The notes: generated by a model not told the origin, from the letters alone. 64,000 nucleotides of DNA from Myxococcales bacterium (GCA_012517325.1 JAAYVF010000074.1:13701-77700), one strand, 5' to 3'; counted from the stretch's first letter, positions 2,400-38,402 are shown. Numbers and translations are program-made.

Positions 2400-3491
2400 A
2401 TGCGATCGGCACGTTTTGTCGTCATTTTCCTTATATTGATAATGTTGCTCGCCTGCGGCGGCCCGCCGAAACCGCATTTTACCTGGCGGGAACCGGTCGA
2501 TATCAATTCAGCCTTACCGGGCAGAATCGCCCTTTTCGTCGATGCGTCCTACGTGCGCCGCACCGATGAAAAACGTCTTTACTTCTCGATCGAGGAATCC
2601 ATCGACCTGGGCAAACTGATCAACGACCAGGCCGAAGCCGCGCTGACCGGCAGCAAATATTCCCTGGCCCTGCAAAAACGCTTTTTCATCGGCGCCTATC
2701 GCGAACGCGAGGCCCTGGTGGCCGACCGTCCGGGCATCGCGCTCTATCAGCGACCCGCGCCGCTGCATCAGGATCCCGAGGCCTGCCGAACCGAAAAATC
2801 GACTAACGAATTCAGGCAACTCTGGCAAATTACCCGCAGTGTCCTGATCGGCCAAACCGACAAATTTCCCGAACAACTCACCAAGGAGTTGGGCGCGCGC
2901 TATCAAATCGACACGTTGGCGATGGTCGTCGGCATCTCGCGTAAAAACGACGATACGAACCCGATGCCGCCGCCGTTCGATCCGCGTTCGGCGCTGGACG
3001 ACCTGTCGGCTTCGATCCTCGCCGTCGTCATGGTTCGGGCGATCGACGGCGTGGTGGTCTATCAAGCCATGACTTCGATCCCCGGCCCGCAGCGCGACAG
3101 CACGATTCGCGGCGCGGTGGATACGGCGTTCAACGGCCTGCCGTTGCACCAGCGGCAAGTCCCCTATCCGACGCCGGTGGTCAAGCAAGCGGCGGAAAGC
3201 GGCGAAGCGACCGAACCGATGGATTCGCCGTGGCTGCAAAATCCGGAAGCCGAGAAGCCCGGTGATCAAGCGCCGGCTTTCATCACCCCGGCCGAGGGGC
3301 GTCCGGCGACGATCGTCGGCCAGGAAAAAGTTTTCTTGTTGCGCCGCCCCGGCGCGATGGGCGACCCGATCGCGACCGCCGTCCTCGGCACCAAGATCAA
3401 GGTGCTGAAAAAAGAAGTGAATTGGTATCTCGTCGCCTTGCCGGACGGCCGCAGCGGTTGGGTCTATTACAAATGGGTCGATTTTTATTGA
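2400..3491 (+). CDS. Lipoprotein with C-terminal bacterial SH3 domain
   Basis: ATG 2400 after GAGAGGA; hydrophobic signal with lipobox LLAC; Pro/Ala/Glu linker; C-terminal GTKIKVLKKEVNWYLVALPDGRSGWV (SH3b-like). Confidence 0.75.
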   Translation: MRSARFVVIFLILIMLLACGGPPKPHFTWREPVDINSALPGRIALFVDASYVRRTDEKRLYFSIEESIDLGKLINDQAEAALTGSKYSLALQKRFFIGAYREREALVADRPGIALYQRPAPLHQDPEACRTEKSTNEFRQLWQITRSVLIGQTDKFPEQLTKELGARYQIDTLAMVVGISRKNDDTNPMPPPFDPRSALDDLSASILAVVMVRAIDGVVVYQAMTSIPGPQRDSTIRGAVDTAFNGLPLHQRQVPYPTPVVKQAAESGEATEPMDSPWLQNPEAEKPGDQAPAFITPAEGRPATIVGQEKVFLLRRPGAMGDPIATAVLGTKIKVLKKEVNWYLVALPDGRSGWVYYKWVDFY

Positions 3492-3553
3492 TCGTTCGCG
3501 CCGACCGAATACCCGCCTGATCGCCTCCCGCCGCCGGCCGATGAACCGGGCGG

Positions 3554-5548: not shown

Positions 5549-5558
5549 GGATTTTCGC

Positions 5559-6311
5559 ATGCGGCGCGTGATGTTTCTCTGTTGCTTGCTCGGCTGCCTG
5601 CTGGGATCGGTCGCCGTCGCGGCCGCGCAGGCGTCCGATCCGTTGGCCGAGGGCAAGGCCGCCTACGAGGCGTTGGATTTCGAAAAAGCGCTGCTCCTGT
5701 TGCAGCAGGCAGTCGGGATGCCGTCGCGTTACACGCCCGGCGAACTGGCGGAGGCGCATCGCTACCTCGCGATGACCCTCCTGGCCTACAACCGGGCCGA
5801 CGAGGCGCGCGAGCAATTCGTGCAAGCCTTGCGGGCCAACCCCGACCTGGCGTTCGATCCGGATCTGACCTCGCCGAAAATTTTGCAGGCCTTCGCCGAG
5901 GCCAAACGGATTTTCGAGGAAAAATACGCCCGGCCCGCCGCCAAGAATGAACCGTTGCCGACCGGGCACACCTGGCGCTGGCCGACCGGTTGGACCCTGA
6001 TCGGCATCGGCGGCGCCTGTCTGGCGACGTCCGGCGTCACCTATGGATTGGTGTGGGACACCTACGGCAAATACCAGGCCGAGGACGAGGACCAGGACAA
6101 GCTGGACCGGCTGAAAAAGCAAGGCGAAACCTACGAGGCCGTCAGCGGCGTCAGCCTCGGCGTCGGCGCCGTGCTGACCGGTCTGGGCATTTATTTCGCG
6201 GCGACCGACCACCCGCGTCCCGTTCATGAAAGTTCGCTGTGGCCGCCGCTCGTGTCGCCGCTCGGGCCCGCCGGAACGACCGGCCTGACGATGGGATGGA
6301 GGTTCCAATGA
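5559..6311 (+). CDS. Exported TPR protein with C-terminal hydrophobic segments
   Basis: Signal peptide (AVAAAQA), TPR-like helices (GKAAYEALDFEKALLLL; AHRYLAMTLLAYNRADEAREQF), two Gly-rich hydrophobic stretches and a terminal aromatic residue (GWRFQ). Confidence 0.75.
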   Translation: MRRVMFLCCLLGCLLGSVAVAAAQASDPLAEGKAAYEALDFEKALLLLQQAVGMPSRYTPGELAEAHRYLAMTLLAYNRADEAREQFVQALRANPDLAFDPDLTSPKILQAFAEAKRIFEEKYARPAAKNEPLPTGHTWRWPTGWTLIGIGGACLATSGVTYGLVWDTYGKYQAEDEDQDKLDRLKKQGETYEAVSGVSLGVGAVLTGLGIYFAATDHPRPVHESSLWPPLVSPLGPAGTTGLTMGWRFQ

Positions 6312-7582
6312 AACGAAAGGAATCGATCCTGCCGCGCGGGCGATTCATCAGCCTTTTGCTTTGCTTGCTGCTGGCGGTCGGCGGCCTGACGGGATGCCCG
6401 ACGTTCGATAAAACGATCGAGGACGACGCGGACACGTCCGACGACGACAACGACGACAACGACAGCGCCGCGGACGACGACGACGACGATAACGACAACG
6501 ACGACACCGCCCCCGGATTCGGCGATTACGTGCTGTGGGCGATGGGACGCGACCGGCAGACCGACGCCGGTGTGTTGCTGGTTTCCGACGGCGGATCCTG
6601 GTTCAATTATCCGCTGTCGCCCGATCTGCCGGGCGAGAACTGGAATCTGATCGCCGGCGGCGCCAGCGCCGTAGGCCGCGGAATGCTGGTCGGCAATATC
6701 GATCACGACGGATCAAGCCTCGGTTTTGGTTTGCGCGTCAAGGAAAACGCACTGACGCCCGAAGTCCCGTCGTTTCAAAGCAATGATTGGGAAGTCAGCG
6801 GCGTCTCGTTTCTGCCGTCGGGCACCGCGACTCTCGGGTGGGTCGTCGCCACCGATCTGGACGACCAGGCCGGCGCGATCTTCCGCCTGGGCACCGACGA
6901 CTGGAATCAGGAGGACATCACTTTTACGGGTGAAAAATGGTCGCTCGTCGCCATTTCGATGCTCGACCAATATACCGGCTTTGCGTTCGGCTCCATCAAT
7001 GTCATCGGTCAAAGCAAGACGAACGGCCTGGCGTTGCGAAAAAGCGGCAGCACCTGGGTGCGAAAAAGCCTCCTGCCCGGATTGTTGAATTCCTGGGCCC
7101 TGAAAGACGGCCAAATGGTCGACGAAACCAACGTCTGGGCGGTCGGGGCCGAGGAAAAATTGGTCGGGAAGAATACCGGCCTCGTGCTTCACGGCGACGG
7201 CGCCGACGATTGGTCGCAATTCGACGTGCCGGATATCGGCAGCCAGAATTGGCTGCTCAATTCCGTCTCATTCGTTTCCTCGATCTTCGGTTTCGCCGTC
7301 GGCGACGACCTGGACAACGACGAGGGCGTGATCCTGGTTTTCGACGGCCCGGTCGAATCCGCATCCTGGGAAAAAATGACCGTCCTGGGACTGGCCAATA
7401 CCTGGTCGGCGCAACAGGTGGAAATGCGTTCGAATACCGACGGTTACCTGGTCGGGTACACCATCGATACCAAACAGGGATTGCTGCTTCACTTCAACGG
7501 CGATGCCTGGAAAGTGGTTTCGCTGGACAGCGTCTACCAATGCAGCGATTGGATGCTGTCCGGTTTCGCTTACGTGCCCTGA
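6308..7582 (+). CDS. Lipoprotein with Asp-rich linker and beta-propeller-like domain
   Basis: ATG 6308 overlaps the upstream stop (ATGA); lipobox LTGC; Asp/Asn tract; repeated blades ending in xxWxx with G(F/W)AVG-type motifs. Confidence 0.75.
   Translation: MKRKESILPRGRFISLLLCLLLAVGGLTGCPTFDKTIEDDADTSDDDNDDNDSAADDDDDDNDNDDTAPGFGDYVLWAMGRDRQTDAGVLLVSDGGSWFNYPLSPDLPGENWNLIAGGASAVGRGMLVGNIDHDGSSLGFGLRVKENALTPEVPSFQSNDWEVSGVSFLPSGTATLGWVVATDLDDQAGAIFRLGTDDWNQEDITFTGEKWSLVAISMLDQYTGFAFGSINVIGQSKTNGLALRKSGSTWVRKSLLPGLLNSWALKDGQMVDETNVWAVGAEEKLVGKNTGLVLHGDGADDWSQFDVPDIGSQNWLLNSVSFVSSIFGFAVGDDLDNDEGVILVFDGPVESASWEKMTVLGLANTWSAQQVEMRSNTDGYLVGYTIDTKQGLLLHFNGDAWKVVSLDSVYQCSDWMLSGFAYVP
6422..6505 (+). 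repeat. Asp-rich low-complexity coding tract (GAC/GAT/AAC)
   Basis: Encodes DDADTSDDDNDDNDSAADDDDDDNDNDD, shortly after the lipobox Cys. Confidence 0.9.
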
Positions 7583-7711
7583 AAAGATCGCTTGTTTGCC
7601 ACTTATTGATTTTTTATCTCAATAGCATTGACCTGATCCCCGCTCCATCCTTATCTTTCAGTTAGAGGAAGAAACGAGCGCCGCCAATGCGGCCGATCCC
7701 TCAAAACGGGA

Positions 7712-9358
7712 GTGAAAACCATGGCGACCTTACTGTCGAACCCAAAAATCACTCATGATTTCAGCTATATTCCAAAAAAAGATGGTCAAGCGCCGAAGCC
7801 CGACGTGAAAGCCGACGCCCTGACGATCACTTCCACGAGTCCGGCGACCGGGGAGTACCTGGGAACGGTGTCGGTGACCGCGCGCGAGGAAGCCCGCGCC
7901 GCCGTCCGCCGGGCAAGAATCGCGGCGAAAAAATGGGCGGAAACCTCGATCGAGGTGCGCGCGCAATATTTGAAGCGGGCCAACCAGTACATTTACGACC
8001 ATTTCGAGCGCATCGTCGAAACCATTTCCAAGGAAAACGGTAAACCGCGGACCGAAGCCGAAATCACCGACCTGCTGCCGGTGATCTACCACAACATCTA
8101 TTACGCCCGTCACGCGGAAAAACTGCTGCGCGACCGAAAAATTCCCTTGCGGTTATGGAGCTTCATCGGCAAGGCCAGCTATCAACGCTACGTGCCGTGG
8201 GGTGTTTTGGGCGTCATTTCGCCCTGGAATTATCCGTTCGGCATTCCGATGACGCAGATCGCCATGGCGTTGATCGCCGGCAATGCCGTTGTCCTCAAGC
8301 CCAGCAGTTCGACGCCGCTGACCGGCGAGATCATCCGGCAAATCTGGGAATCGACCGGCCTGCCCAAGGACGTGCTGACCGTCATTCAGGGTCCGGGGCG
8401 ACTGGGCGAAGCGCTGATCGAAGAGCCGGCGGACCGGCTGATCTTTACGGGCAGCGTCGCCATCGGCCGCCACCTGGCGAAACTGGCCGCCGAAAAATTG
8501 TTGCCGATCACCCTTGAACTGGGCGGCAAGGATCCGGCGATTGTGCTGGCCGATGCCGATCTCGAGGCGGCCACCAGCGGCATTCTCTGGGGCGCGATGG
8601 CCAACGCGGGCCAGACCTGCGCCGGGATCGAGCGGGTGTACGTCGAGCGGCCGATTTACGACGAGTTCGTGCGGCGCATCACCGACAAGGCCAAGTCCCT
8701 GCGGGTCGGCGCCGACCGGGATTTCGACAGCGACCTGGGCGCGATCACCAACCGCGGCCAATTGGAAACGATCGACCGCCAGGTTCGGGAAGCTGTCGCC
8801 CAAGGCGCGAAAATCGAGACCGGCGGACGGATCGTCGAGGACTGCTGCGGCGATTTTTACGCCCCGACCATCCTCACCAACGTCCGGCACGGCATGGCGA
8901 TCATCTGCGAGGAAAATTTCGGGCCCGTGCTGCCGATCATGCCGTTCGACACGATCGACGAGGCGGTCCGCCTGGCTAACGACACCCGGTTCGCCCTCTC
9001 GGCCAGCGTCTGGACAGGCAGCAACCGGCGCGGTCGCGAAATCGCCCGGCAATTGGTGGCGGGCACGGTCACCATCAACGACAGCTTGTACACCTACGCG
9101 CTGGCCGAAACGCCGTGGGGCGGCTATCGCGAATCGGGCATCGGTAAAACGCACGGCGAGGAAGGTTTGCTCGAAATGGTCCGGCCGGTGCACATCGCCT
9201 ACGACCGCTTCCCGCGGATCAAAAAACCGTGGTGGTATCCGTACGACGAGAATTTTTCGGTGGCGTTCGGCGCGGCGGTGAAGGCGCTGGCGGGCAAGGA
9301 TGTCGTCCGCTCGCTCTGGAAAGCGGCGGCGAACCTGAATTTCCGCGGCAAACTGTAG
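7712..9358 (+). CDS. NAD(P)-dependent aldehyde dehydrogenase
   Basis: GVISPWNYPF, VVLKPSS, FTGSVAIG, LELGGKDP (catalytic Glu), NAGQTCAG (catalytic Cys) and EENFGPVL. The start could be GTG 7712 or ATG 7721. Confidence 0.95.
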   Translation: MKTMATLLSNPKITHDFSYIPKKDGQAPKPDVKADALTITSTSPATGEYLGTVSVTAREEARAAVRRARIAAKKWAETSIEVRAQYLKRANQYIYDHFERIVETISKENGKPRTEAEITDLLPVIYHNIYYARHAEKLLRDRKIPLRLWSFIGKASYQRYVPWGVLGVISPWNYPFGIPMTQIAMALIAGNAVVLKPSSSTPLTGEIIRQIWESTGLPKDVLTVIQGPGRLGEALIEEPADRLIFTGSVAIGRHLAKLAAEKLLPITLELGGKDPAIVLADADLEAATSGILWGAMANAGQTCAGIERVYVERPIYDEFVRRITDKAKSLRVGADRDFDSDLGAITNRGQLETIDRQVREAVAQGAKIETGGRIVEDCCGDFYAPTILTNVRHGMAIICEENFGPVLPIMPFDTIDEAVRLANDTRFALSASVWTGSNRRGREIARQLVAGTVTINDSLYTYALAETPWGGYRESGIGKTHGEEGLLEMVRPVHIAYDRFPRIKKPWWYPYDENFSVAFGAAVKALAGKDVVRSLWKAAANLNFRGKL

Positions 9359-9365
9359 AACCTAC

Positions 9366-9400
9366 GTCGGGCGGCGAAGTCATTCGCTTTGCCGCCCGAC
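9366..9400. terminator. Hairpin between convergent genes (possible bidirectional terminator)
   Basis: GTCGGGCGGCGAAG-TCATTCG-CTTTGCCGCCCGAC, a 14 bp stem with one G-U pair and no clear U-tract. Confidence 0.5.
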
Positions 9401-9413
9401 CGATAAGCGACTC

Positions 9414-10055
9414 CTACATCATCCCCATATGATCGTCATCATGATGGTTGACATCACAATCGCCCCAATGGTGGTGATTGCCGTTGTCGGCATCTTGCCC
9501 GTCGTCCCACCAATTGGCGCACCGATCATGGAGTTCGCCCAGAAACCCGCGCATCAAGCCGACGTGTTCGGTACGGGCCGCGGCGCAAGTTTCCAGATCG
9601 GCCGATTCGGCGCACCGTTCGTGCAGATCGTTCAAAGCCTGCCGACAGCCGTCCAGGTCCAGCCGCATTTGATGCATGCGATCGCCGTCCATCATGTGCC
9701 CGCCCCACAGGCATGAACCCTCGACGTTGCCGGTCGCACCGCCGCCGGGTTCGCAATAGGCCGATTCCTTGCATTGATCGACCATGCGGTCATAAAGGGA
9801 ATCAAGCTCGTCCAGGTCGTCTCCGGCTTGGCGGTAATAGCCGTCGAACCCCGCCACCGGGCTTGTTTCAGCCCCGTATTGTGCCACTTTCTCATTCAGG
9901 CGGTTGATCGTCTGGAGGAACAATTGCTCGGTATCCGAGACGTAAACGTCCGAGCCCGAATCGGAATCCGCGGAATCGTCATCGGATGAATCGCACGCCA
10001 GAAACAGGAAGCCGGCGAGCAGCGCAAGAGAACCAGCGATAATCAGCAATCTCAT
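9414..10055 (-). CDS. His/Met/Cys-rich lipoprotein of unknown function
   Basis: ATG 10055; lipobox FLAC; short acidic linker; eight further Cys; C-terminus NHHHWGDCDVNHHDDDHMGMM. Confidence 0.75.
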   Translation of the reverse strand: MRLLIIAGSLALLAGFLFLACDSSDDDSADSDSGSDVYVSDTEQLFLQTINRLNEKVAQYGAETSPVAGFDGYYRQAGDDLDELDSLYDRMVDQCKESAYCEPGGGATGNVEGSCLWGGHMMDGDRMHQMRLDLDGCRQALNDLHERCAESADLETCAAARTEHVGLMRGFLGELHDRCANWWDDGQDADNGNHHHWGDCDVNHHDDDHMGMM

Positions 10056-10202
10056 TTTCCGCCCCTTTTTTATCGGCTTCATCCAATTCCTCGCCTAGAA
10101 TTTAATCACGGATCCAGATTGAAAGAGGACAAATCGACGCTGCTTTTATTTACGGCCAAAGTGCGACAAAATCGGGCGAATCTGCCGAAAGGGCGACCAA
10201 AA

Positions 10203-11186
10203 ATGAACAGGACATTCTGGCTGCTCATCCTCGCCGGCCTGCTGGTTTTTTCGTTTTCCTGCGACAGCGGCGACGATGATGACGACGATCCGGACGACAA
10301 CGATGACGATGATGCGGCCGGCGACGATGATAACGACAATGACGATAGCGCCGATGACGACGATATGACCGGCGACGATGATGACGACGACAACGATGAC
10401 GACAACGATGACAACGACAATGACGACAACGACGATTGGGACAACAGCCATCGGTGGGGATTCGTCGTCGTCGGCGAGGGTTTCGTTTCCTCGAACGTGA
10501 TCGGGACGGACTATTACAACTACGTTTCCGCGTCGTTCTCCGATCCGGCGGAAGCCGCCGGTTGGAATCCGCCCGTCGAAAGCGCGGGCGACTGTGATCG
10601 TTACTATTACGATTACGACAACAACCCGGATTACGACTACTACAACGGCGGAACGGTCACGGTGACCGGCGCGGCCGTTTCGCCGATCCACCTGAATCCC
10701 GTCGCCTATCTTTACGGGTATTACTATCAGGCCGATTACGACTCGACCGCCGTCGGCGACCTGTTCGGCCCGGGTGACACGATTCATTACTCCACCACCG
10801 GCAACGGTTCGATCCCGGCTTTTTCCGGGCAACTCGACGCGCCGGGAACGGTCACGGTGACGCAACCGGCGAATTTCGATTCGCTGATCAGCCTGCCGAC
10901 CGGCGACCTGACGCTGGCCTGGCAACCGGGCGACGGGAAGTGGGTGTCGGTCGCCATCACCACGGTGAAGAACAACCAGGCCCAATCGATCAGTTGCCTG
11001 GCCGACGACGAAGACGGGTCGCTCACCGTGCCCGCCTCGCTGATGGCTGATTTGTACGGCGATCCGCTGTCGTTTTCGGTCACCGTGACCCGCATCGCCG
11101 TGCAACGCGCTTCAGCGGGCGGCAAGGATCTCGATTTCGAGATCACGACCTATCGCGGGCGGAACTATCAAGCGACGGATCAATGA
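10203..11186 (+). CDS. Lipoprotein with long Asp-rich linker and beta-rich domain
   Basis: ATG 10203; signal ending SFSC; about 60-residue Asp/Asn tract; Tyr/Asp-rich segment; beta-strand-rich C-terminal domain. Confidence 0.8.
   Translation: MNRTFWLLILAGLLVFSFSCDSGDDDDDDPDDNDDDDAAGDDDNDNDDSADDDDMTGDDDDDDNDDDNDDNDNDDNDDWDNSHRWGFVVVGEGFVSSNVIGTDYYNYVSASFSDPAEAAGWNPPVESAGDCDRYYYDYDNNPDYDYYNGGTVTVTGAAVSPIHLNPVAYLYGYYYQADYDSTAVGDLFGPGDTIHYSTTGNGSIPAFSGQLDAPGTVTVTQPANFDSLISLPTGDLTLAWQPGDGKWVSVAITTVKNNQAQSISCLADDEDGSLTVPASLMADLYGDPLSFSVTVTRIAVQRASAGGKDLDFEITTYRGRNYQATDQ
10263..10445 (+). repeat. Asp-rich low-complexity coding tract
   Basis: Mixed GAC/GAT/AAC/AAT codons immediately after the lipid-Cys. 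Confidence 0.9.
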
Positions 11187-12274
11187 ACCCGGACCGGACG
11201 ATGAAAACGGCGCCAGCCGATTCGAAACGGGCCGCGCGCCGGTGGTGGCCGGCGATTGTATTCGGCTTGCTTCTGCTGGCTGCGCCGGCGCGAAGCGGTG
11301 AACTGTTCCAGACCGGTTATCGGCCGCTGGACCCGCTGGCACCACTTTCGCCCCTCCGTTCCACCCTGGCCGGCGCGCCACGTTTTCACCTTACCGTCCG
11401 CGCCGATCTGGCCGTGCAACGCAATCCCAAACATGAGCCGCTGCACGTTTATCTGCCCCTGCCCGCCGACGCGCCCTATCAACAGATTCACTGGTTCCGG
11501 TTACAACCGGAACCGGCGGAAATCCGCCAGACACGCGACGGTTATCGGATCGCGGTCTGGGACTGCGGTCGGCCGGCGCCCGGGACGGCGATCGACATCG
11601 TTTACGAAGCGGAAGCCAGCCTGGGCCGGATCGAATGGGAGATCGAGCCGAACAACGCCGGCGTACTCGGCGAAATCCCGCCGGCTATCACGCGGGAATA
11701 CCTTGCGGACCGGGAATCTTACGCTCTGCAAAATCCGCTGGTGATTCAGGCGGCTCGGGAAGCGGCCGGCGACAACCAGAACCCGCTGGCGATCTTGCGC
11801 GGTGTCGTCCGGACCGTAAAGAAGCGGCTTTCCTACCGGCTCGACAACGTGAAAAACGACGCCGGCGCGACTCTGGCCCAGGGCCATGGATCCTGCACCG
11901 AGTATGCTTTCGCGATGATCGCCCTGGCCCGCCGCAGCGGCTTGCCGGCCCGTTACGTCGCCGGCCTTCACGCGCGCCCGGTCGTTCCCGCCGCCGCCAA
12001 ACTGCATAAGGCGAACCACAAAATCGTCGAATTCTATCTGCCGCGCTACGGCTGGCTGCCCGTCGACACCACCAAAGCTTCGCTGAAATTCGACGACCCG
12101 AAGGGAAAAATCACCGGCCGGATCGATCGGACGATGATCTATTTCACGCACGAGCCCGAGGCCGACGCCGCGCCGCTCGATCCCCGCGTCCATCTGTTCA
12201 CCGCCACCTCGGGCGAACCCGATTCCGCTTTACTAATTAAAAAGCGCTCGACCGTTACCTGGGAAAAGAAGTAA
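11183..12274 (+). CDS. Exported transglutaminase-like (Cys-His-Asp) protein
   Basis: GHGSCTEYAFAMIALARRSGLPARYVAG (catalytic Cys), NHKIVEFY (His) and GWLPVDTT (Asp); N-terminal signal ending APARS; start overlaps the upstream stop. Confidence 0.85.
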   Translation: MNPDRTMKTAPADSKRAARRWWPAIVFGLLLLAAPARSGELFQTGYRPLDPLAPLSPLRSTLAGAPRFHLTVRADLAVQRNPKHEPLHVYLPLPADAPYQQIHWFRLQPEPAEIRQTRDGYRIAVWDCGRPAPGTAIDIVYEAEASLGRIEWEIEPNNAGVLGEIPPAITREYLADRESYALQNPLVIQAAREAAGDNQNPLAILRGVVRTVKKRLSYRLDNVKNDAGATLAQGHGSCTEYAFAMIALARRSGLPARYVAGLHARPVVPAAAKLHKANHKIVEFYLPRYGWLPVDTTKASLKFDDPKGKITGRIDRTMIYFTHEPEADAAPLDPRVHLFTATSGEPDSALLIKKRSTVTWEKK

Positions 12275-12420
12275 ATTTTCAAATCCCCAGTTGTTTCCCT
12301 AACCGGCGTCGAGTTTTTTGTTTTTCTTGCCTAACGAAAAAAACCGCGATACGATGAATCATCGTTTTTTCTGGCAAATTGATGGCCAACAGGCATTTTT
12401 TCGCTGACGGGAGGCGCGTC

Positions 12421-12729
12421 ATGATCGTCACCGGCGTCGAAATTTTCGTCAAAAGCGAGTTCGTCGAGCTGTTTATCGCCGCCACGCGCGCCAACCACGA
12501 AGGCGCGATCGCGGAACCCGGCAACCTGCGGTTCGACGTGCTGCAGGCCAAGGACGATCCCACGCGCTTTTTCCTTTACGAAGCCTACGAATCCGAAGCG
12601 GCGGCAAAGGCACACAAGGAAACGCCGCATTATCTGAAATGGCGAGACACCGTGGCCGACTGGATGGCGCAACCGCGGGTCGGCACGCCCTATCGCGTGC
12701 TGTTCCCACCCGACGCAAGTCACTGGTAG
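12421..12729 (+). CDS. ABM-family (LsrG-like) putative monooxygenase/isomerase
   Basis: EPGNLRFDVLQ, FFLYEAY, AHKETPHYLKWRDTVADWMAQPR; GGGAGG RBS before ATG 12421. Confidence 0.85.
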   Translation: MIVTGVEIFVKSEFVELFIAATRANHEGAIAEPGNLRFDVLQAKDDPTRFFLYEAYESEAAAKAHKETPHYLKWRDTVADWMAQPRVGTPYRVLFPPDASHW

Positions 12730-12768
12730 CGCCGCCCGACGGTCCGCGCGGCAACCGGGGAGGACGCG

Positions 12769-13893
12769 ATGCGGATCGAGTTGGATGCAAGCGGTTCGGT
12801 CGAGGGATTGGGGCAACTGATCCAAACGGTCGCGGCCGATCCTCGCACCCAGGGTTTGCTCATTCTGGCCGGCGACGATAATCAATTTACGCCGGAACAG
12901 GTCGACCCGTTGCTGCTCCAGACGACCTTGCCGTTGTTCGGCGGCGTTTTTCCGGGCATCATCTACGGCCGCAACAAGCTGATGCGGGGAACCATCGTCG
13001 CCGGGCTGCCCAAGCCGCCGAAGGTGCACGTGATCGCCGGCCTGAGCGACATGGACACCAACTACGACGACCTGATCGACGAGCGAATCCGCGAGATCGA
13101 TAAAACACGGACGATGTTCGTCTTCGTCGACGGTCTGGCCCGCCGCATCAGCGCCCTGATCGACGGCCTCTTCAACGTCTTTGGCCTGGAATTCAATTAC
13201 CTGGGCGGCGGCGCCGGCTCGCTCAGCCTGAAGCAAAAACCCTGCCTGTTCACCAATCGCGGCCTGCTGGCCGATTGCGCCGTGCTGGCCCTGTCGGAAC
13301 TGGAGAGCGGCATCGGCGTCGCCCACGGCTGGCGGGCGATCGGCGGCCCGTTTTCGGTCACCGAGTCGGACCGCAACATCATCCGCTCGCTCGATTGGCG
13401 CCCGGCGTTCGACATCTACAAAGACCTGGTTGAAAAAAGTGCGCGGGTGAAAATCACCGACGTCAACTTTTTCGACATCGCCAAGTACCACCCCTTTGGC
13501 ATCAGCAAGATCGGCACGGAGCGCGTGATCCGCGACCCGCTGCGCAAATTGGAGGACGGTTCGCTGGTTTGCGTCGGCGAGGTGCCGCCGCAAGCCCTGG
13601 TCGACGTCATGACCGGCGACGTCAACAGCCTGGTGGACGCGGCGGGAATGGCCCTGAACCTGAGCCTGGATTCCTACCGGGGCCCGGAAGCCGCCGAACG
13701 CACCGTGCTGTTCATCGACTGCATTTCCCGCGTGCTGTGCATGCAAAACGAATTCGAGCAGGAGTTGGAAGCCGTCCACCTGCGCGATACGCCGATGATC
13801 GGCGCGCTGACGATCGGTGAAATCGCCAACAGCGGCAAGGACTATCTGGAATTCTACAACAAGACGGCCGTGATCGGCGTGCTGGAGAGTTGA
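12769..13893 (+). CDS. FIST (NosP-like) sensory domain protein
   Basis: [53 protein letters not shown] and FYNKTAV: FIST_N plus FIST_C pattern. Confidence 0.88.
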
Positions 13894-15983
13894 TGGAACG
13901 CTTCGCCAAACAGATCCGCAGTTTGCTGTACGAAGTGGCGATGAACACCGGTACCAGCCTGAGCCTGCGGCCAATGCTGCGGCAAAGCCTGTCCACGCTG
14001 ATGCGCAAACTGAATTGCTCGGCCGGCTGCATCTACCGCTTCCGGCCGGAAACGCCGCCGAGCGCCGCCGAAATGGTTTTTTCGATTCCGCGAAAAATCA
14101 GCCACCAGCGCGCCCTGGAAGCCGCCGAAAGCCTGATCCCCTCGCTGCCCGTCGGTTCCACCGAGCCGCTGGTCGGCAGTGTGGGCGACGAAGCCTTTTT
14201 CTATCTCCTACCCCTGCCCGCGTTCGGCTTGATGGTATTGTTGAAAAACGGCGACCCCCTTCATCCGTTGATTCTGAAAGCGATCGCGCCGCTGCTGGAG
14301 CGTCTGGCCGAGGCCGCGCAAGCTTGCCTGCAAAGCGAGGGCCTGCGACAGGCGCACGACGAACTCGAATTGCGCGTCGCCGAGCGGACGGCCGAACTGG
14401 CGCGGATCAACGAGGAACTGCGCCACGAAATTTCCGAACGCCGCCGGGTGGAAGCGGAAATCATTCAGGCCAAACAGCAGGCCGAGACCTCGAATCGGGC
14501 GAAGAGCGAATTTCTGGCCAACATGAGCCACGAACTGCGAACGCCACTCAACGCGATCATCGGTTTTTCGGAAATCCTCGAACTGCAGATGATCGGCGGC
14601 CTCAACGACAAACAACAATCCTACATCCACAACATCGTCCTCAGCGGACGCCACTTGCTGCAACTGATCGACGACATTCTCGATCTTTCGAAGGTCGAGG
14701 CCGGCCGCATGATTTTGGATTACGCCGAATTGAATCCGCGCCAGACGCTGGAAACCTGTCTGGAACTCGTCGGCGAAAAAGCCGCCGAGCACCGGCTGCG
14801 ACTGTCGCTCGAAGTGGCGGCCGAGCTGGCGGATCACCCGTTCCGCGCCGATGAACGAAAATTCAAGCAAATCCTGTTCAACCTGCTGTCCAATGCCATC
14901 AAATTCACCCCCGAAGGCGGCGCAATCGTCGTCCGGGCTTTTCGCGAACCGGACCGGACCGTCTTCGAGGTGTCCGACAACGGCATCGGCATCGCGCCGG
15001 CCGACCAGGAACGGATCTTCCGCGAATTCGAACAGGTCGATTCGTCAGCCGCCAAAAAAACGCCCGGCACCGGATTGGGCCTGGCGCTGACGAAAAAGTT
15101 GGTCGAATTGCACGGCGGCCGGATCACCGTGCACAGCGAGGGCGACAACCGCGGCAGCCGGTTCACCTTCTTCCTGCCGGATCGGAGCACAGAGCCGGCG
15201 GCGGCGCCGGCCGCGGCCATTCCGCTGCCGCCACCCACCGGCCTGCCGGGACAACCGCTGGTGCTGGTCGTGGAAGACGATCCGCAAACCTGCCACCTGC
15301 TCGTGCACTATTTGCAAGAGGGCGGATACGCCACCGCGTGTGCAATTCAGGGCGACGAAGTCTTGCCCCTGGCCCGGCGCCTGCGGCCCGCCGCCATCAC
15401 CCTCGACATGCGTCTGCCGAAAAAGAACGGCATGAACGTTCTCGAGGAATTGAAGGCGCACCCCGAAACGAAAAACATCCCGGTGCTCATCGTTTCGGTG
15501 GCCGAAAAGGAACAACGCGCCATTCAACTGGGGGCGATCGAGTGGCTGGTGAAGCCGATTCGGAAGGAACAATTGCTGGCGCTGCTGGATCAATTCGGCC
15601 GCCAGGAGCACCTCGCCATCCGCGGTATTTTATTGATCAGCGACGATCCGACGGCCGCCGCCTTGTTGGCCGAGAGCCTGATCGCCCGCGAATACCGGGT
15701 CTGGACCGCGCAGGATCTCGTCGGCGGACGCGAAGTGGCGCGGCGGACGCGCCCCGATCTGATCCTGTTCGATCTCGCGACGCCGATCATGACCAGCCTG
15801 GAAGCAGTCGAGCAGCTTCGCGCGATCCCGGAGACGAAAGGCATTCCGACAGTCATTTTCACGGCCCACTCGCTGACGGAGGAAAAGAAAAAATTTCTTT
15901 CCATGCTGTCGGAAAGCATCGTGCCGCACGCCGACGGCGTGCCGCTGCTGAAAAAACTGGCGGATTTGTCCAAGCCCGGGTGA
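13893..15983 (+). CDS. Hybrid sensor histidine kinase with two receiver domains
   Basis: H-box [17 protein letters not shown]-box [11 protein letters not shown]-boxes DNGIGI and GTGLGLAL; REC1 (VEDD...LDMRLP...KP) and a second, partly degenerate REC. TGATG overlap with the FIST gene. Confidence 0.93.
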
Positions 15984-15985
15984 AC

Positions 15986-17368
15986 TCAACAACCGCAAGC
16001 GTCGTCGTCTGCACCGGCTGAAGACTTCTGCGCGGGCGACGATGTGTCGTCATCATCGGCCTGGGTGTCGTCATCGTCGTCCGGCGTGTCGTCATCGGAG
16101 GTATCGTTGTCGTCGTCATCGTCCGCGCCGGAATCATCATCGTCGTCGGTGGCGGCCTCGACGGTGAACGCCCCGGCCAACGAGGCTTGCTGGCCCAGCG
16201 AACCTACCAGCACCAGATCGTAAACGCCGGCCGGAATCGTCGCGGGTAACTGGGCTGTCGCCTCGGCGGCGGAAAGCACCGTCACTTGTTCGAGCGAAAT
16301 CAAATCGCCGCCGGCTACCGTGAAATAGGCCTGCACATCGGCTTCGAAACCTTGACCAGAAATGCTCACCGCCGTTGCGGCCGAACCCGCTGCCGGCTCG
16401 ATTTTTTCCGGGGTCGGCACGCAAGTCCGCCAGAGTTGCACGGTGCGCGATCCGTCCGGTTCGTCCGAACGGCAGCCGCCCGCCAGCACCACCCCGTACC
16501 CCGGCAAATACGCGGCGGCGGGAGCCACCAGCGCCCGAGCGATCTGCGTTCCCGTATCGCTCCATTGAGCGGAAAAATAATTTTCGTCGCCGCTTTGGAG
16601 TTCCTGCCAGCCATTGCCGCCCGCCGTCAGCCAAAGCAACTCGCCGGCCGCGATCAACGCCGGCCGGTTGCGCCCCAGCGGCGAATCGACGATTTCGTAC
16701 GTGTCGGCTTGCGGATCGTAAGCGAAGGTCGACGAATCCTGCATCCACCCGCCGGTGAGGTAAATCGATCCCTGCAGCGTCGCGGCGGCGCCGTAGACCT
16801 TCCCGGCGGGCAACGGCGCGATCGCCGTCCATTGATCGGCACCGGGGTCGTACACATAGGCGGCGGTCACCGCGGTCAAGCCATCGGAAGTGCCGCCGAA
16901 ACAATAGAGGCGCCACTCATGCTCGGCGCACATCACTCCGGCGATCGGGATCGGATAGGGAGTCACGATTTCCCACTCGTCCGCGTCCACCGCATAACGA
17001 AAAACGGTCGAGACGATTCCGTCATTGAACCCCCCGACCGAAAAAAGGTGGTCCTCGACCGCGGCGTTGCCGAAATCGCTTTTCGCAAAAGGCAGGTCGG
17101 CGCACCAGGACCAGGTTGCGAGATCCGGATCGAAGACCTGGCAGTCCGAACGATAGGTTGGCTCCGCGTTATCCACTCCGCCGAAAAGGTAAAATTTCCC
17201 CTCCGCCACCGCACCGCCGGCTCCGTATCGTTCGTTGGTGAATGAGGGCCAGTCGGATTGCCAGCCGATCGTGCAGAAATCGGCACTCGCCGCCGTCGGA
17301 CCGCCGAAACGGAAGCACGCCAGGAACAGCGCGATCCCGATGATTGCGGCGAAACGGCGATCGGTCAT
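15986..17368 (-). CDS. Exported Kelch-repeat propeller + IPT/TIG domain protein with Asp-rich tail ending in CGC
   Basis: Six GG-containing Kelch blades (YLFGG, FSVGG, YCFGG, YLTGG, LTAGG, VLAGG); TIG-like PTPEKIEP...SISGQGF; tail ...DDDACGC-stop. Confidence 0.85.
   Translation of the reverse strand: MTDRRFAAIIGIALFLACFRFGGPTAASADFCTIGWQSDWPSFTNERYGAGGAVAEGKFYLFGGVDNAEPTYRSDCQVFDPDLATWSWCADLPFAKSDFGNAAVEDHLFSVGGFNDGIVSTVFRYAVDADEWEIVTPYPIPIAGVMCAEHEWRLYCFGGTSDGLTAVTAAYVYDPGADQWTAIAPLPAGKVYGAAATLQGSIYLTGGWMQDSSTFAYDPQADTYEIVDSPLGRNRPALIAAGELLWLTAGGNGWQELQSGDENYFSAQWSDTGTQIARALVAPAAAYLPGYGVVLAGGCRSDEPDGSRTVQLWRTCVPTPEKIEPAAGSAATAVSISGQGFEADVQAYFTVAGGDLISLEQVTVLSAAEATAQLPATIPAGVYDLVLVGSLGQQASLAGAFTVEAATDDDDDSGADDDDDNDTSDDDTPDDDDDTQADDDDTSSPAQKSSAGADDDACGC
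16047..16147 (-). repeat. Asp-rich low-complexity coding tract
   Basis: Encodes DDDDDSGADDDDDNDTSDDDTPDDDDDTQADDDD before the CGC terminus. Confidence 0.9.
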
Positions 17369-17461
17369 GGGTTCCCCTTTTCAGGAAGATCTGGTGAACG
17401 GTTTTTACCATAATGTGAATAACCTGAACAAGAAGGAACTCGGGGGCGGCCAATGGCGCCG

Positions 17462-17490
17462 AAAAAAGGCAACCCCGTTCGGGTTGCCTT
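17462..17490 (-). terminator. Intrinsic terminator after the lipoprotein gene at 17520-18215
   Basis: Minus strand: AAGGCAACCC-GAACG-GGGTTGCCTT-TTTT, a perfect 10 bp stem followed by a U-tract. Confidence 0.8.
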
Positions 17491-17519
17491 ATCGGTTTCG
17501 CGAAGCGCGCTTCGGCGCA

Positions 17520-18215
17520 TCAAAGAGGCGTGAAAACGATGTCGAAGGAAGTACGCAGTTTGATTTCCAAATCCGGGTCCAGGCTCTCGATGCCGTGCGT
17601 CGGGACATTCAGCCGCAGGCAGAAGGCGAAGGGCGCGTCGAAATCGAGCATCTGCTCGCCCAACTTCTCCTGGCCCTTGGGCGAGAAATCGGCGTTCGCC
17701 CAATCGCTGACGTTCGTGCCGGCCGGGATGTCGACCGAAGCGACCAGATCGCTGTTGGCCAGCGAATCCGGCTCGACGATTCGCCACATCAGGGAGTCGA
17801 TTCCCAGGTCATCGAGATTGACCCCACCGCGCAAGCCCATCGCCGGCGGCAGGGTCTCCACCATGAACAGGTCCAACGTGCCGCCCTGGCTGATGTTGTC
17901 CCGAATCTTGGATTGGATGTTCTTGACGTTGATTTCGCTGATGTTGCCTTTCACCGTTTCCCACATATCGGCGTAGTCGGTGACCGACATCAAATCGTTG
18001 ATGCTTAACGCCTCGGCATAGCAGACGGCCGTCAAGGAATAATCCTGATAGGCCAGGGCGAAAAGCGGCGTCCAATCCTCGGTGATATCCAAGGTGAACG
18101 ATTCCGTTTTTTTCGTCTTATCATTGATTTCGTCCTTGATCGTATCGCAAGCCGCGAGGCTTAAAAATAAAACGACCGCCCAAATCAACCAAGCTCGATG
18201 GATCGGGGATTTCAT
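17520..18215 (-). CDS. Lipoprotein of unknown function
   Basis: ATG 18215 after a GAGGGAGGA RBS; lipobox LAAC; terminator downstream. Confidence 0.8.
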   Translation of the reverse strand: MKSPIHRAWLIWAVVLFLSLAACDTIKDEINDKTKKTESFTLDITEDWTPLFALAYQDYSLTAVCYAEALSINDLMSVTDYADMWETVKGNISEINVKNIQSKIRDNISQGGTLDLFMVETLPPAMGLRGGVNLDDLGIDSLMWRIVEPDSLANSDLVASVDIPAGTNVSDWANADFSPKGQEKLGEQMLDFDAPFAFCLRLNVPTHGIESLDPDLEIKLRTSFDIVFTPL

Positions 18216-18432
18216 CAAATCCTCCCTCGGTTAAATCGTTGATGCCGACCCGCCGCTTAATAATAAAGCGAACCAGGGCTTCTGGCTAGGGGTTTTCCGC
18301 GGCGGACGCAAAACCCGGCTTTCAGCTTGCGAAAACCGGACAAAGGCGGAAGAATTTTTCCGTGGGAGCTGTTTTTCATCGACTTGTTATGAGAATTTAC
18401 CGAATAAACCTGAGTAACACCTGGGGATAAAC

Positions 18433-18903
18433 ATGAAGGTCGACTACGTCAATCCTTTCCTGAACGGGATTCTCAACGTGCTCGCCACCATGGCGATGAT
18501 CGAGGCGGTTCCCGGCAAGCCCTACTTGAAAACCGGCGAAACCGCCAAAGGCGAGGTGACGGGATTGATCGGTCTGGCCAGTCCGGAATTGAAAGGATCG
18601 TTGGCGATCAATTTCACCAAGGGCGCGATCCTGAGAATCGCCGAGGCGATGCTCGGCGAGCATTTGACCGAAATCGATGCTACCGCCCTGGATGTCGCGG
18701 GCGAAATCACCAACATGGTTACCGGCGGCGCCAAACGCGAATTGTCCGAAAAAGGCTACAAGTTCGACATGGCCCTGCCGACCATCGTCAACGGCATCGA
18801 ACACTGCATTTCGCACGGCACCAAGGCGCCGACGATCGTCGTCCCTTTCACGATCGAAAGCGCGGGCGAATTCTACGTCGAGGTCAGTTTCGAGGAGCGC
18901 TGA
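18433..18903 (+). CDS. cheX: Chemotaxis phosphatase CheX
   Basis: YVNPFLNG, GEVTGLIGL, GSLAINF and GEITNMVTGGAK (E-x2-N phosphatase motif), then LPTIVNG. Confidence 0.92.
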   Translation: MKVDYVNPFLNGILNVLATMAMIEAVPGKPYLKTGETAKGEVTGLIGLASPELKGSLAINFTKGAILRIAEAMLGEHLTEIDATALDVAGEITNMVTGGAKRELSEKGYKFDMALPTIVNGIEHCISHGTKAPTIVVPFTIESAGEFYVEVSFEER

Positions 18904-18910
18904 CCCGCGC

Positions 18911-21529
18911 TCAATCGACGGTCACCGTCCCCGCTAAAAACGTATCGCGGATCCACAAATTGCCGGCGGTCGAGTCATAGAACCAACCGCTCGCCGCGGC
19001 GTCCCATTCGACATAGCTGGCGTATTCCGTCAACGCGCCGGCTGGTCCGGTGACGGTGCTCGGCGCGCCGCCGTCGTAAGTCGCCGGCACCGCCCGCAGC
19101 GAATAGGTCCGCGCCAGGGGCGCGCCCGAAACTGTCAGCGTGAATCCGCCGCCGCTCTGCGCCAGGGCGAACGCGGTATCGTCTTCCAGGGTGAACGAGG
19201 AATTGCCGTACGGATACAGTTCCACCCACAATAGGTCGGCGACATCGGTGTGATCGATCACCTCCGGATTGTCGGTCGGCCAGAGCGTTTCCACCGACGG
19301 ATCGAGCAAGGGGATGATCGCGCCGGCCTTGGCATAGACCGGGATATCTTCTTGCGGCACGTCGCGGGTGAAATTGTCGGGGCCGTCGTAGACCTCGTTG
19401 GTCCAGTAATCCACCCAGCGGTCGGCGGGCAGGTAAATGTCGCGCTCGAACTGATCGTGCAGATAAACCGGCTCGACCAGCAGCCAGTCGCCCAGGAGGT
19501 AATCCCAGTTGCGGTCGTAGGTGATCGTGTCGTCCAGGTAAACCAGCGGCAGCATGCGCATGATCGGGTGGCCGGTCAGCGTCGCCTCGCGGGCGTAGGC
19601 TTTCATGTACGGGAACAGCCGGGTGTGGATGACGGCGTAGCGACGGTAAACGTCTTCCATCGGCGCCGCGTAATGTTCCCATACTTCCTGCGCGCCGTTC
19701 TTCGGGCTCTCGAAAATCGGCCGAAACGCCGAATGCGCCGTCCATCGCATCAACAGTTGCGGATCGTCGGCGTCGTAACTGGCGAAGCCGCCGTCATTGG
19801 AACCGTAGTAGGGGAAGCCCGCCGTGCCCAGCGTCAGACCGCCGATGATATCGGCCGGCAAACCCAGGGCGAAGCTCCAATCGGATTCCATATCGCCCGG
19901 CCAAAAATAATTGATGTGGGTCTGCTCGCCCCAGACGGCGGTGCGCACCGTGCAAACGCCCAGCCCGCCGTTGTATTCCTGGGCCAGTTCCCAAAAGAGC
20001 TGGTGGTAGGCCCATTTGTACTCGTACTGTTCGGTCATGGCGTCGCCGAAATCGCCCAGGTTGAACGCATTGGCCGGCCACAAGCCCAGCGTATCGGCGC
20101 CGATGTACTCGCCGCCGTCCATCTTGAACCCTTGAACACCCATGTTCATCACGTTGCGCACCAAGTCCTGGTACCAGGTGTAGGCATTCGGGTTGAGGAA
20201 ATTGACCATGGCGCCGTTGTCGTGCCACCAGGGGTATTCGTAGAGCAGGCCGAGGATGGACACCAGGTAGCCGTTATCCTTGGCGAAATTGAATTGCGCC
20301 GAGTTGTCCTCGATCATTCCCGGCACTTCCACCGGCGAAACGCGGTTCACGAACTCCGCCGTCCAGAGATAAAACGCGTATCCCTGATCGTGAACGTAGT
20401 CGATGACCGCCTGGGCGTCGCTGAACTGGCAACCGGAGGGGCATTCGTTGAAGACGAACGTGCTGTATGAGGTTTGCCAGGGCGCGTCGACCATGATCGA
20501 GGAGGTCGGAATGCCGTGCTCGCGCAAAGCGTCGGCATCGGCATAGACCTCGCTCTCCGAATTGTTCACGTTCCGCCAATGCAGGTGCCCGAACAGGTAA
20601 TCGGGGTTCATCGGCGGACGGCCCGTCACGCCGGTGTAATTCTCGATGATGTCCAGCGGCGCCGGCCCCCAAAAAACGTGCGTCGTCAGTCGGTCGGTGT
20701 AGTATTTATAGCCGTAAGCGTCGTCGCGGGTGTAACCCATGTCGAAATAGCCCCGCCCCTTGTCTTCCACAAACAAGCCGTACCCGCGCGAGGAAAAATA
20801 GAACGGCATCGGCGCATGATTCTGAATCTGGTCCGTCAGGTCGACGCCCAGACCGACGAACATCGTGCGAATTTTACCCCGTTGATCGATGTCGTCGTAT
20901 TGCAGGCCCAGGCCGAAGAAGTGCTCGTCGGCGTCCAGCCGGTAACCGCCGGAGTAGTATTTGACCTCCTCTACTCCCGTCGCCGTCGTCGAAAAAACGA
21001 GGTGATTATCGGCGGCTTTTTCGAAAATCAGCGTTAGCCCCGCCTCGCGATTCCGCTCCTGCGTATTGACGGCCCGCACGTTGACGGTCCAGGTATCGCC
21101 GTCCTGCGACCAATCGAGCACTTCGGCGGCGTAATACCAGTTGTCGCCGAAATTCCCGGCCTGAAAACCGTGCGGCAGAAATGGCATGGGCGAGAGGTTC
21201 AGCGCTTTTTCCGGCTCGTTGGTCGCCAGCAAGGTCTGGCTGTCCGGACCGAGGATTTCGAGATAGTAGGGATTCAAGCGGATGTGCACGGACATTTGGC
21301 CGGCCGGGATCGTCAACCACTCCGGAGTGGTGTCGTCGTTGTCGTCGTTGTCATCGTTGTCATTGTCATCGTTGTCGTCGTTGTTGTCGTCGTTGTCGTC
21401 GTTGTCGTTGTCGTCATCGTCGGTCGGCGCATTGCCGGAATCATCATCGTCGTCATCCGACCCGCAGGAAACCAACAGGAAACCGAACGAGATCAGCAGG
21501 ATCACGATCAACAACCGAAACGATTTCAT
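18911..21529 (-). CDS. Glycoside hydrolase family 31 lipoprotein with Asp-rich linker
   Basis: ATG 21529; lipobox LVSC; Asp/Asn tract; FFGLGLQ, GFKMDGGE (nucleophile Asp), WPGD (acid/base Asp), RWTAHSAF, HPIMRML, YLLGDWLLVEPV and IPVYAKAGAIIP. Confidence 0.9.
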   Translation of the reverse strand: MKSFRLLIVILLISFGFLLVSCGSDDDDDDSGNAPTDDDDNDNDDNDDNNDDNDDNDNDDNDDNDDTTPEWLTIPAGQMSVHIRLNPYYLEILGPDSQTLLATNEPEKALNLSPMPFLPHGFQAGNFGDNWYYAAEVLDWSQDGDTWTVNVRAVNTQERNREAGLTLIFEKAADNHLVFSTTATGVEEVKYYSGGYRLDADEHFFGLGLQYDDIDQRGKIRTMFVGLGVDLTDQIQNHAPMPFYFSSRGYGLFVEDKGRGYFDMGYTRDDAYGYKYYTDRLTTHVFWGPAPLDIIENYTGVTGRPPMNPDYLFGHLHWRNVNNSESEVYADADALREHGIPTSSIMVDAPWQTSYSTFVFNECPSGCQFSDAQAVIDYVHDQGYAFYLWTAEFVNRVSPVEVPGMIEDNSAQFNFAKDNGYLVSILGLLYEYPWWHDNGAMVNFLNPNAYTWYQDLVRNVMNMGVQGFKMDGGEYIGADTLGLWPANAFNLGDFGDAMTEQYEYKWAYHQLFWELAQEYNGGLGVCTVRTAVWGEQTHINYFWPGDMESDWSFALGLPADIIGGLTLGTAGFPYYGSNDGGFASYDADDPQLLMRWTAHSAFRPIFESPKNGAQEVWEHYAAPMEDVYRRYAVIHTRLFPYMKAYAREATLTGHPIMRMLPLVYLDDTITYDRNWDYLLGDWLLVEPVYLHDQFERDIYLPADRWVDYWTNEVYDGPDNFTRDVPQEDIPVYAKAGAIIPLLDPSVETLWPTDNPEVIDHTDVADLLWVELYPYGNSSFTLEDDTAFALAQSGGGFTLTVSGAPLARTYSLRAVPATYDGGAPSTVTGPAGALTEYASYVEWDAAASGWFYDSTAGNLWIRDTFLAGTVTVD
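21332..21457 (-). repeat. Asp-rich low-complexity coding tract
   Basis: Encodes DDDDDSGNAPTDDDDNDNDDNDDNNDDNDDNDNDDNDDNDD after the lipid-Cys. Confidence 0.9.
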
Positions 21530-38401: not shown

Positions 38402-38402
38402 T

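Follow-up and report, generated by a model that had tools for sequence, protein, structure and literature searches.

Aspartate-rich tracts adjoin N-terminal lipobox cysteines or C-terminal CGC motifs of exported proteins: a candidate polyanionic tether in two mirrored layouts

The window, i.e., the whole stretch of DNA analysed here, is 64,000 nucleotides (64 kb) long and comes from Myxococcales bacterium (GCA_012517325.1, JAAYVF010000074.1:13701-77700); several of its exported proteins carry long tracts rich in aspartate (Asp) beside a cysteine (Cys) close to one end of the chain. A six-frame scan of the whole window for dense Asp tracts (≥45% Asp in 20 amino acids, aa) revealed exactly five, all of them adjoining a terminal Cys; no further dense tract was found in the six frames, and none in window proteins without an export signal. 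Three N-terminal tracts began 0–8 residues past a lipobox Cys (6422-6505, 10263-10445, and 21332-21457), and two C-terminal tracts stopped 12–22 residues short of a protein end reading ...CGC-stop. Translation reproduced every tract coordinate in a preliminary description of this DNA, and tracts of the same type were indeed present at the opposite end of the CGC-tailed proteins (15986-17368 and 42140-45058), as had been claimed there.

The first lipoprotein (6308..7582, + strand) started with MKRK and had a signal peptide and lipobox LTGC (6308-6397, Cys codon 6395-6397). Its sequence from the lipobox Cys onward was CPTFDKTIE, leaving an 8-residue gap between the Cys and a 28-aa Asp/Asn tract (6422-6505), and the gene was covered by independent DNA and RNA contigs. 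The second (10203..11186, +; lipobox SFSC in ...FSFSC, Cys codon 10260-10262) had a 61-aa Asp/Asn tract (10263-10445) immediately after the Cys, made of impure repeats with a period of 9–51. A Pfam search gave no match for either protein, so that their earlier labels, 'propeller' and 'beta-rich' respectively, are unconfirmed. The third was a GH31 alpha-xylosidase-like lipoprotein with GH31 domains (18911..21529, -; lipobox LVSC in ...LLVSC, Cys codon 21464-21466), in which the Cys was followed by GS and a 42-aa Asp/Asn tract (21332-21457), the folded part beginning near residue 70. A small lipoprotein (9414..10055, -; lipobox FLAC in ...FLFLAC, Cys codon 9993-9995) had the short version ascribed to it previously, a 15-aa Asp/Ser linker, DSSDDDSADSDSGSD, at 9948-9992. 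Its C-terminus (9414-9500, -) was rich in His, Cys, and Asp (...NGNHHHWGDCDVNHHDDDHMGMM) and could be a metal-binding site. Lipoboxes with K/R n-regions were thus present in four window proteins (LTGC, FLAC, SFSC, and LVSC), and lipoboxes were likewise recognized in about 25 related proteins.

The two C-terminal tracts belonged to proteins with signals of the signal peptidase I (SPI) type. An exported Kelch beta-propeller and TIG protein (15986..17368, -; Pfam Kelch and TIG; signal ..TAASA/DF) had a 34-aa Asp tract (16046-16147), a 12-aa gap, and a terminal DDDACGC-stop (15986-16009). The other was an exported 972-aa Golvesin_C/Amidase_3-like protein by Pfam (42140..45058, -), with a 48-aa Asp/Asn tract (42209-42352), a 9-aa gap, and DDDDDSSSGSCGC-stop at 42140-42181. 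By way of contrast, two window lipoproteins were free of tracts, namely an SH3-domain lipoprotein (2400..3491, +; LLAC/GGPPKP) and another at 17520..18218 (-; LAAC/DTIKDEIND). The latter was without a convincing family match, yet had the top metatranscriptome contig depth of the region, about 25.

Homologs of the Kelch protein were rare, only three being found among 5.8 billion proteins. The 43%-identical ortholog P0002, on the 442-kb contig L001, ended (DDDxV)n..DDDDDDDDSCCGC, i.e., in an Asp tract followed by ...SCCGC. At 3279-11452 the same contig had four adjacent genes ending in an Asp-rich stretch and CGC, encoding a C25 peptidase, a PQQ-like protein, and two Kelch proteins; near them were two lipoproteins with a lipobox Cys and then a DDDxV-type tract. 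When 185,579 species genomes were scanned for the pattern GACGAYGAYGAY-N(0-18)-TGYGGNTGY-TRA, at least 120 loci matched. Among the matches listed, at least about 70 were in frame at the ends of long open reading frames, all from 10 metagenome-assembled genomes (MAGs) including FR-FEN-1099-1 and HK-STAS-FEN-2, and the remaining ~50 were out of frame and in unrelated taxa. The consensus C-terminal end consisted of an Asp tract, DDDDDD, G/S/C, C-G-C, and the stop. The occurrence of in-frame Asp runs with CGC-stop in 10 related MAGs among these matches agrees with the earlier suggestion that the feature is lineage-wide. FEN-1099 corresponds to the candidate phylum Lernaellota (PMC9324843, PMC13248872), and neither paper mentions the tracts or tails. 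One member of a 73-member homolog family described below was annotated as Candidatus Lernaella stagnicola.

Metagenomes from sludge, biogas, and anaerobic digesters contained the window sequence, as did three metatranscriptomes of anaerobic digesters, and transcript contigs from the latter covered tract genes. The closest non-tract link from the window to the CGC-positive MAGs was 24449-25615 (+), with a 64%-identical ortholog in MAG CTOTU29523 (L054 2388-3533). The closest GH31 relative had no synteny with the window, but three adjacent lipoproteins there carried a lipobox and a DDN tract. Tracts were written in genome-specific dialects, DDN in the window and its closest relative and DDDxV in contig L001, and when N-terminal tracts were compared with C-terminal ones, their residues other than Asp correlated better within genomes (r = 0.87) than between them (r = 0.57).

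The terminal motif proved looser than CGC, with the forms GCGC, CCGC, GCCG, CCG[NKR], GGCG, and GCA. About 72 tails ended in a Cys motif within the last 1–6 residues, and in the census described below GCGC occurred 29 times, together with GGCGC, SGCGC, CCGC, and GCA. Two small exported proteins (L005 1177-1938 and L047 3002-3748), with repeated Cys-rich modules and internal Asp tracts between them, ended ...NGCA or ...SGCA, a form of the tail with just one Cys. CGC is the true C-terminus: the stop codons after the tail were TGA (50), TAA (19), and TAG (3), with a second in-frame stop directly after in 13 of the 72. Selenocysteine insertion or read-through at the stop after CGC was rejected, the stop codons being mixed and often doubled. 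The cargo consisted of Kelch and PKD proteins and of C25, M14, and S8 peptidases, families that elsewhere carry LPXTG, MYXO-CTERM (myxosortase), GlyGly-CTERM (rhombosortase), or type IX secretion system (T9SS) signals. Neither Pfam nor NCBIfam yielded a tail model for the window proteins or the 72 CGC-tailed proteins; the 25 NCBIfam families shared most widely by the 72 included no CTERM model, and none matched a window protein.

The position of tracts relative to terminal Cys was assessed in a census of the window, contig L001, and 63 positive loci of the 10 related MAGs (542 kb, 409 genes), in which gene, signal, and lipobox calls were home-made heuristics giving approximate counts. Tracts were found in 23 of 50 complete lipobox proteins (~46%), starting 1–15 aa past the Cys in about 25 true cases, and in 47 of 150 other signal-bearing proteins, where nearly all ended 4–6 aa before a terminal Cys motif. 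Of the 114 proteins that had neither a signal nor a terminal Cys, only about one had a tract (Fisher p ~3e-12 for lipoproteins versus such proteins). Equal frequency of Asp tracts in cytoplasmic proteins and a lack of positional association with terminal cysteines, the two outcomes named in the preliminary description as overturning its reading, are both at odds with these figures. At the N-terminus, a median of 3 aa separated the Cys from the first DDD; at the C-terminus, a median of 2 aa lay between the last DDD and the first Cys of the terminal motif, the intervening sequence being a single G in 27 cases.

Beyond the lineage, a metagenome scan for Cys-Gly-x-Asp5 gave 123 matches, 50 of them in lipobox context, which indicates that acidity directly past a lipid-bearing Cys is common elsewhere. 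Most outside matches (L126-L244) were on contigs of 65–74% GC and looked like lipoproteins of the solute-binding type, with C-G-(D)5-8 followed by Gly/Ser/Thr linkers. Long tracts occurred in only about six metagenome loci (~50 kb). Only the long tracts and their C-terminal mirror are specific to the lineage.

Both layouts were found within one protein family. The alignment of family A1, whose members share the same domain, contained one member with a lipobox and tract and three with a tract and GCGC. The domain family is without a Pfam model, and a profile search gave 73 homologs. Of these, 33 combined an SPI signal with an acidic linker at the C-terminus that ran into a Cys motif (with a dense Asp tract in 29), and 33 had a lipobox, 13 of them with tracts of 38–71 aa and the others with short linkers. 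None of the 73 had both a lipobox and a Cys tail (Fisher p ~1.6e-16), and the rest were fragments or ambiguous, bar one with a tail resembling the tripartite sorting domains discussed at the end. P0074, a homolog of family A4, ended ...PPFCGTVPADARGGHGWIVLAYGAAAIAYAGRGRRR, with a hydrophobic stretch and an Arg cluster (RGRRR) behind the Cys motif, and this tail, which no NCBIfam model matched, occupied exactly the place of the Asp tract and GCGC of its relatives. The mutual exclusion of Cys tail and lipobox (33, 33, and 0 with both) supports the view that the terminal CGC, previously proposed as an anchor, behaves as an anchor-type signal.

Linker length varied widely among relatives with conserved composition. 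In GH31 orthologs of 61–74% identity, the lipobox Cys and the acidity after it were kept in all, and the distance from the Cys to the PEWxxIPAG domain start spanned 14–66 residues. Orthologs with short linkers were still acidic past the Cys (CGSDDDG, CNSDEES, and CHSSNNDSED). Lipobox members of family A4 had linkers of 3–71 aa, and several proteins of the 73-member family had short, non-acidic ones, e.g., CKVEKKP and CRPDIK. The ortholog comparison thus gave the variable length and conserved composition that a spacer had been expected to show (14–66 aa, all acidic, in GH31, and 3–71 aa in A4). An AlphaFold2 model of GH31, made with GH31 ortholog sequences, had residues 18-66 as coil with a predicted local distance difference test (pLDDT) score <50 and its first strand at residue 71, and the tract is predicted to be intrinsically disordered.

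These lengths raise the question of whether the tracts are mostly neutral expansions, with a short acidic motif as the functional part and slippage-prone GAY repeats that grew in tolerant linkers. Such an origin would account for homolog lengths from 3 to 71 aa, for the tandem repeats in the tract DNA, which Tandem Repeats Finder (TRF) detected only in impure form (66–88% matches), and for a genome dialect common to unrelated genes, and D5-8 runs past a lipobox Cys are common elsewhere. Slippage should, however, act everywhere, yet tracts were not found in same-genome proteins without a signal or terminal Cys. The codons also spoke against it, being mixed, as previously noted, with a GAC:GAT ratio in tracts near the window-wide usage of 634:407. 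Compared with a 95%-identical ortholog, the Kelch tract had no indel, eight synonymous changes, and two non-synonymous ones (A>D and D>E, acid-preserving), and the folded part of the same protein had 32 synonymous and 23 non-synonymous changes. These counts show purifying selection on the Kelch tract, as the earlier claim of selection at the protein level supposed, and we regard mostly neutral expansion as unlikely.

The similarity of the tracts at the DNA level had a practical side. Contigs from public runs joined one Asp-tract region to another (6488>10398, 6495>10305, and 16131>21384), the mis-join regions in the window being 6488-6500, 10289-10436, 16064-16131, and 21331-21422, and word depth reached 450–600 at 20928-21478 in three metatranscriptomes. 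Tract DNA cross-maps among many genes and is repetitive enough to cause assembler mis-joins, which makes it a practical problem for short-read assembly.

The reading that we consider reasonably probable makes the tract a disordered, polyanionic tether that links an anchoring or sorting Cys to the folded part of exported proteins. In the N-terminal layout, a signal of the signal peptidase II (SPII) type with its lipobox would be followed by the Cys, which presumably receives a diacylglyceryl group through the ordinary Lgt/LspA pathway, then by 0–15 small or acidic residues, a 28–61-aa Asp tract, and the enzyme. In the C-terminal layout, an SPI-type signal and the folded domain or domains would precede the Asp tract, which would lead through an Asp run and one or two small residues to the terminal Cys motif, typically G-C-G-C. 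The two layouts would be alternative routes by which glycosidases, peptidases, and propellers are attached to the envelope or cell surface, with tract length drifting freely and charge, disorder, and the place beside the Cys retained. That the N-terminal Cys is lipidated and the C-terminal one modified, where the proteins finally reside, and how the tether works mechanically are all parts of this scheme that we infer. The holding of enzymes off the membrane and the binding of Ca2+, both suggested in the preliminary description, can likewise only be inferred.

The Asp run nearest the Cys may perhaps also be read as a sorting cue, as is the acidic lipoprotein export signal (LES) of Bacteroidota, and a stronger form of this idea is that the tract is a sorting signal rather than a spacer, the acidic run beside the Cys routing the protein to the surface and the remaining tract being tolerated. 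Sorting and tethering can coexist. Most tracts start C-G/S/x-DDDD, near the LES consensus of Bacteroides fragilis (PMC5080379), GH31 orthologs with short linkers keep the acidity past the Cys, the cargo consists of nutrient-degrading enzymes, and the 50 of 123 metagenomic C-G-x-D5 matches in lipobox context fit as well. The start of the 6308..7582 lipoprotein, CPTFDKTIE, and the non-acidic starts of several family members (CKVEKKP and CRPDIK) do not fit, LES function has been demonstrated in Bacteroidota only, and lengths of 30–90 aa are left unexplained. We hold sorting in place of tethering to be a rather doubtful explanation.

Composition alone would also lead one to expect cation binding, in which the tracts would take up Ca2+, Mg2+, or other metals with high capacity and low affinity, or would bind mineral or cationic surfaces, with the Cys as a soft-metal site. 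Calsequestrin tails, osteopontin, and mollusc shell proteins have poly-Asp segments to which Ca2+ and mineral bind, and the small lipoprotein at 9414..10055 also has a His/Cys-rich end. Cation binding does not, however, predict the strict placement beside the Cys or the mutual exclusion of lipobox and tail, and no defined Ca2+ motif (DxDxDG, EF-hand, or RTX) is present in the tracts; as the explanation of the tracts it is quite improbable.

For the C-terminal end, we tentatively propose, at a confidence that stays short of even, that the Asp tract and G-C-G-C-COOH form a new, non-tripartite C-terminal anchor confined to FEN-1099/Lernaellota-like bacteria. The terminal Cys would be modified extracytoplasmically (e.g., S-lipidated) by a putative enzyme, making it a true mirror of the N-terminal lipoprotein anchor, with poly-Asp as a shared tether or sorting element read from either direction. 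Alternatively, the C-terminal Cys motif might be no lipid anchor at all, serving as a redox or cross-linking handle (CXC or a mixed disulfide) or as a cleaved secretion tag. CXC motifs are redox-active, as in the CGC of the flexible tail of Erv2, and CGC peptides mimic protein disulfide isomerase (PDI). The tail motif lacks a hydrophobic segment or Lgt-type context, and exclusivity with the lipobox would also fit two surface routes, comparable to T9SS cargo and LES lipoproteins in Bacteroidota. A CXC disulfide is not obligatory, however, because single-Cys variants (GCA and GGCG) exist; moreover, many of these organisms are anaerobes (PMC9324843), and no partner was identified. We therefore think a redox or tag role unlikely.

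Several points weigh against the tether and anchor readings. The approximate nature of the census counts, due to the home-made gene, signal, and lipobox calls, is compounded by the choice of loci, which were picked for the CGC tail, so that the C-terminal class, unlike the N-terminal class and the negatives, was ascertained by pattern. A few tracts were internal linkers between domains or followed an SPI cleavage site without a Cys; the rule in the preliminary description that the tract always sits between a terminal Cys and the working domain consequently stood as a positional association, 'always' being too strong. Some lipoproteins of the same genomes had no tract or had Pro/Gln-rich linkers instead. 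A long tether is not required for enzyme function, since some orthologs work with linkers of 3–17 aa. The host lineage is probably FEN-1099/Lernaellota-like, an assignment that rests on shared features and homologs and not on a marker phylogeny. Lastly, the neighbourhoods offered no candidate for an enzyme acting on the C-terminal Cys: all-vs-all clustering of the 409 genes, with Pfam applied to neighbours with multiple transmembrane (TM) segments, yielded only TPR membrane proteins, PMT_2 glycosyltransferases, MatE, and AcrB, and nothing consistent.

Some further observations concern these linkers and neighbourhoods. Post-Cys linkers rich in Pro, Gln, and Ala occurred in the lipoproteins L036 2178-3074, L102 64-891, and L113 2044-3060, and the Asp and Pro/Gln/Ala linkers may be two classes with different destinations. 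Homologous multi-TM and TPR proteins were encoded at 38337-40226 (+) in the window and at L046 4201-6636, in different genomes; in the window the gene was within about 2 kb of one with a CGC tail, and in L046 it was immediately next to such a gene. A PorU-like sortase role for the CGC-tailed C25 peptidases was rejected, their scores of 38–70 bits falling short of the cutoff of 420.

The known means by which bacteria attach proteins to their envelope are few. A single poly-Asp module that occurs beside a lipobox Cys or a GCGC end, and never both, amounts to a natural experiment on how anchors and tethers are recognized, and the pattern points to a putative sorting or modifying enzyme. It also gives genome annotation a simple criterion by which the surface proteome, including glycosidases and gingipain-like and subtilisin-like peptidases, can be predicted in a little-known phylum whose members are active in anaerobic digesters, fens, and anoxic lakes. 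Disordered lipoprotein linkers are already known in general; for the GCGC tail, neither a Pfam or NCBIfam model nor a paper describing it was found, and a literature search on Asp-rich lipoprotein linkers, Cys-Gly-Cys ends, or either of these in Lernaellota found no description.

Among known systems, disordered N-terminal linkers have been described in the outer-membrane lipoproteins RcsF, Pal, and NlpD of Escherichia coli (El Rayes et al., bioRxiv 10.1101/2021.01.05.425367). Like them, the N-terminal tracts lie between the presumably lipidated Cys and the globular domain, are disordered over more than 22 residues (28–61 aa in the tracts, unstructured in the GH31 model), and are conserved neither in sequence nor, among orthologs, in length; unlike them, they are extreme in poly-Asp content, follow a genome-specific dialect, and have a mirrored C-terminal counterpart. 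The LES of Bacteroidota, with the B. fragilis consensus C-SDDDD, consists of a polar residue and then at least two acidic ones (Lauber et al., 2016, PMC5080379), and its cargo comprises surface glycosidases and proteases (Lauber et al., 2016, PMC5080379; Valguarnera et al., 2018, PMC6222051). Most of the present tracts resemble it in having acidic residues directly past the +1 Cys, and nutrient-degrading cargo is common to both; by the LES rule (polar or basic, then ≥2 acidic residues at +3 to +6) CGSDDDD, CDSGDDD, and CDSSDDD fit and CPTFDKTIEDD does not. The LES, however, is 3–5 residues long, at fixed positions, and of Bacteroidota, whereas the present tracts are of 28–90 residues and do not all start at +2/+3.

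At the C-terminus, the tail resembles the tripartite Cys sorting domains (Haft; MYXO-CTERM kin) in its position, lineage restriction, conserved Cys, and diverse exported enzymes; low-complexity sequence often precedes those domains too, and P0074 has a tripartite-like tail. It differs in having no TM segment or Arg cluster after the Cys, the protein ending 0–3 residues later, and in the neighbourhoods covered no CPBP/Rce1-like cognate protease for the GCGC tail was seen. T9SS cargo, by contrast, has a folded C-terminal beta-sandwich of ~80 aa, in place of which the present tail has low-complexity Asp and 4–6 residues. Prenylation ends (CaaX; Rab -CXC, -CC, and -CCXX) likewise have one or two Cys in the last 1–4 residues, there as the point of membrane attachment, with variants that look similar to those here (GCGC, CCGC, GCCG, and CCGN), but prenylated proteins are cytosolic prenyltransferase substrates, whereas the GCGC proteins carry N-terminal Sec-type signal peptides, so that any modification would be extracytoplasmic. 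The calsequestrin tail, the poly-Asp of osteopontin, and the Asp-rich shell proteins of molluscs share the composition and polyanionic character of the tracts; unlike in these binders of Ca2+ or mineral, the defining feature here is their place beside the terminal Cys of exported bacterial enzymes.

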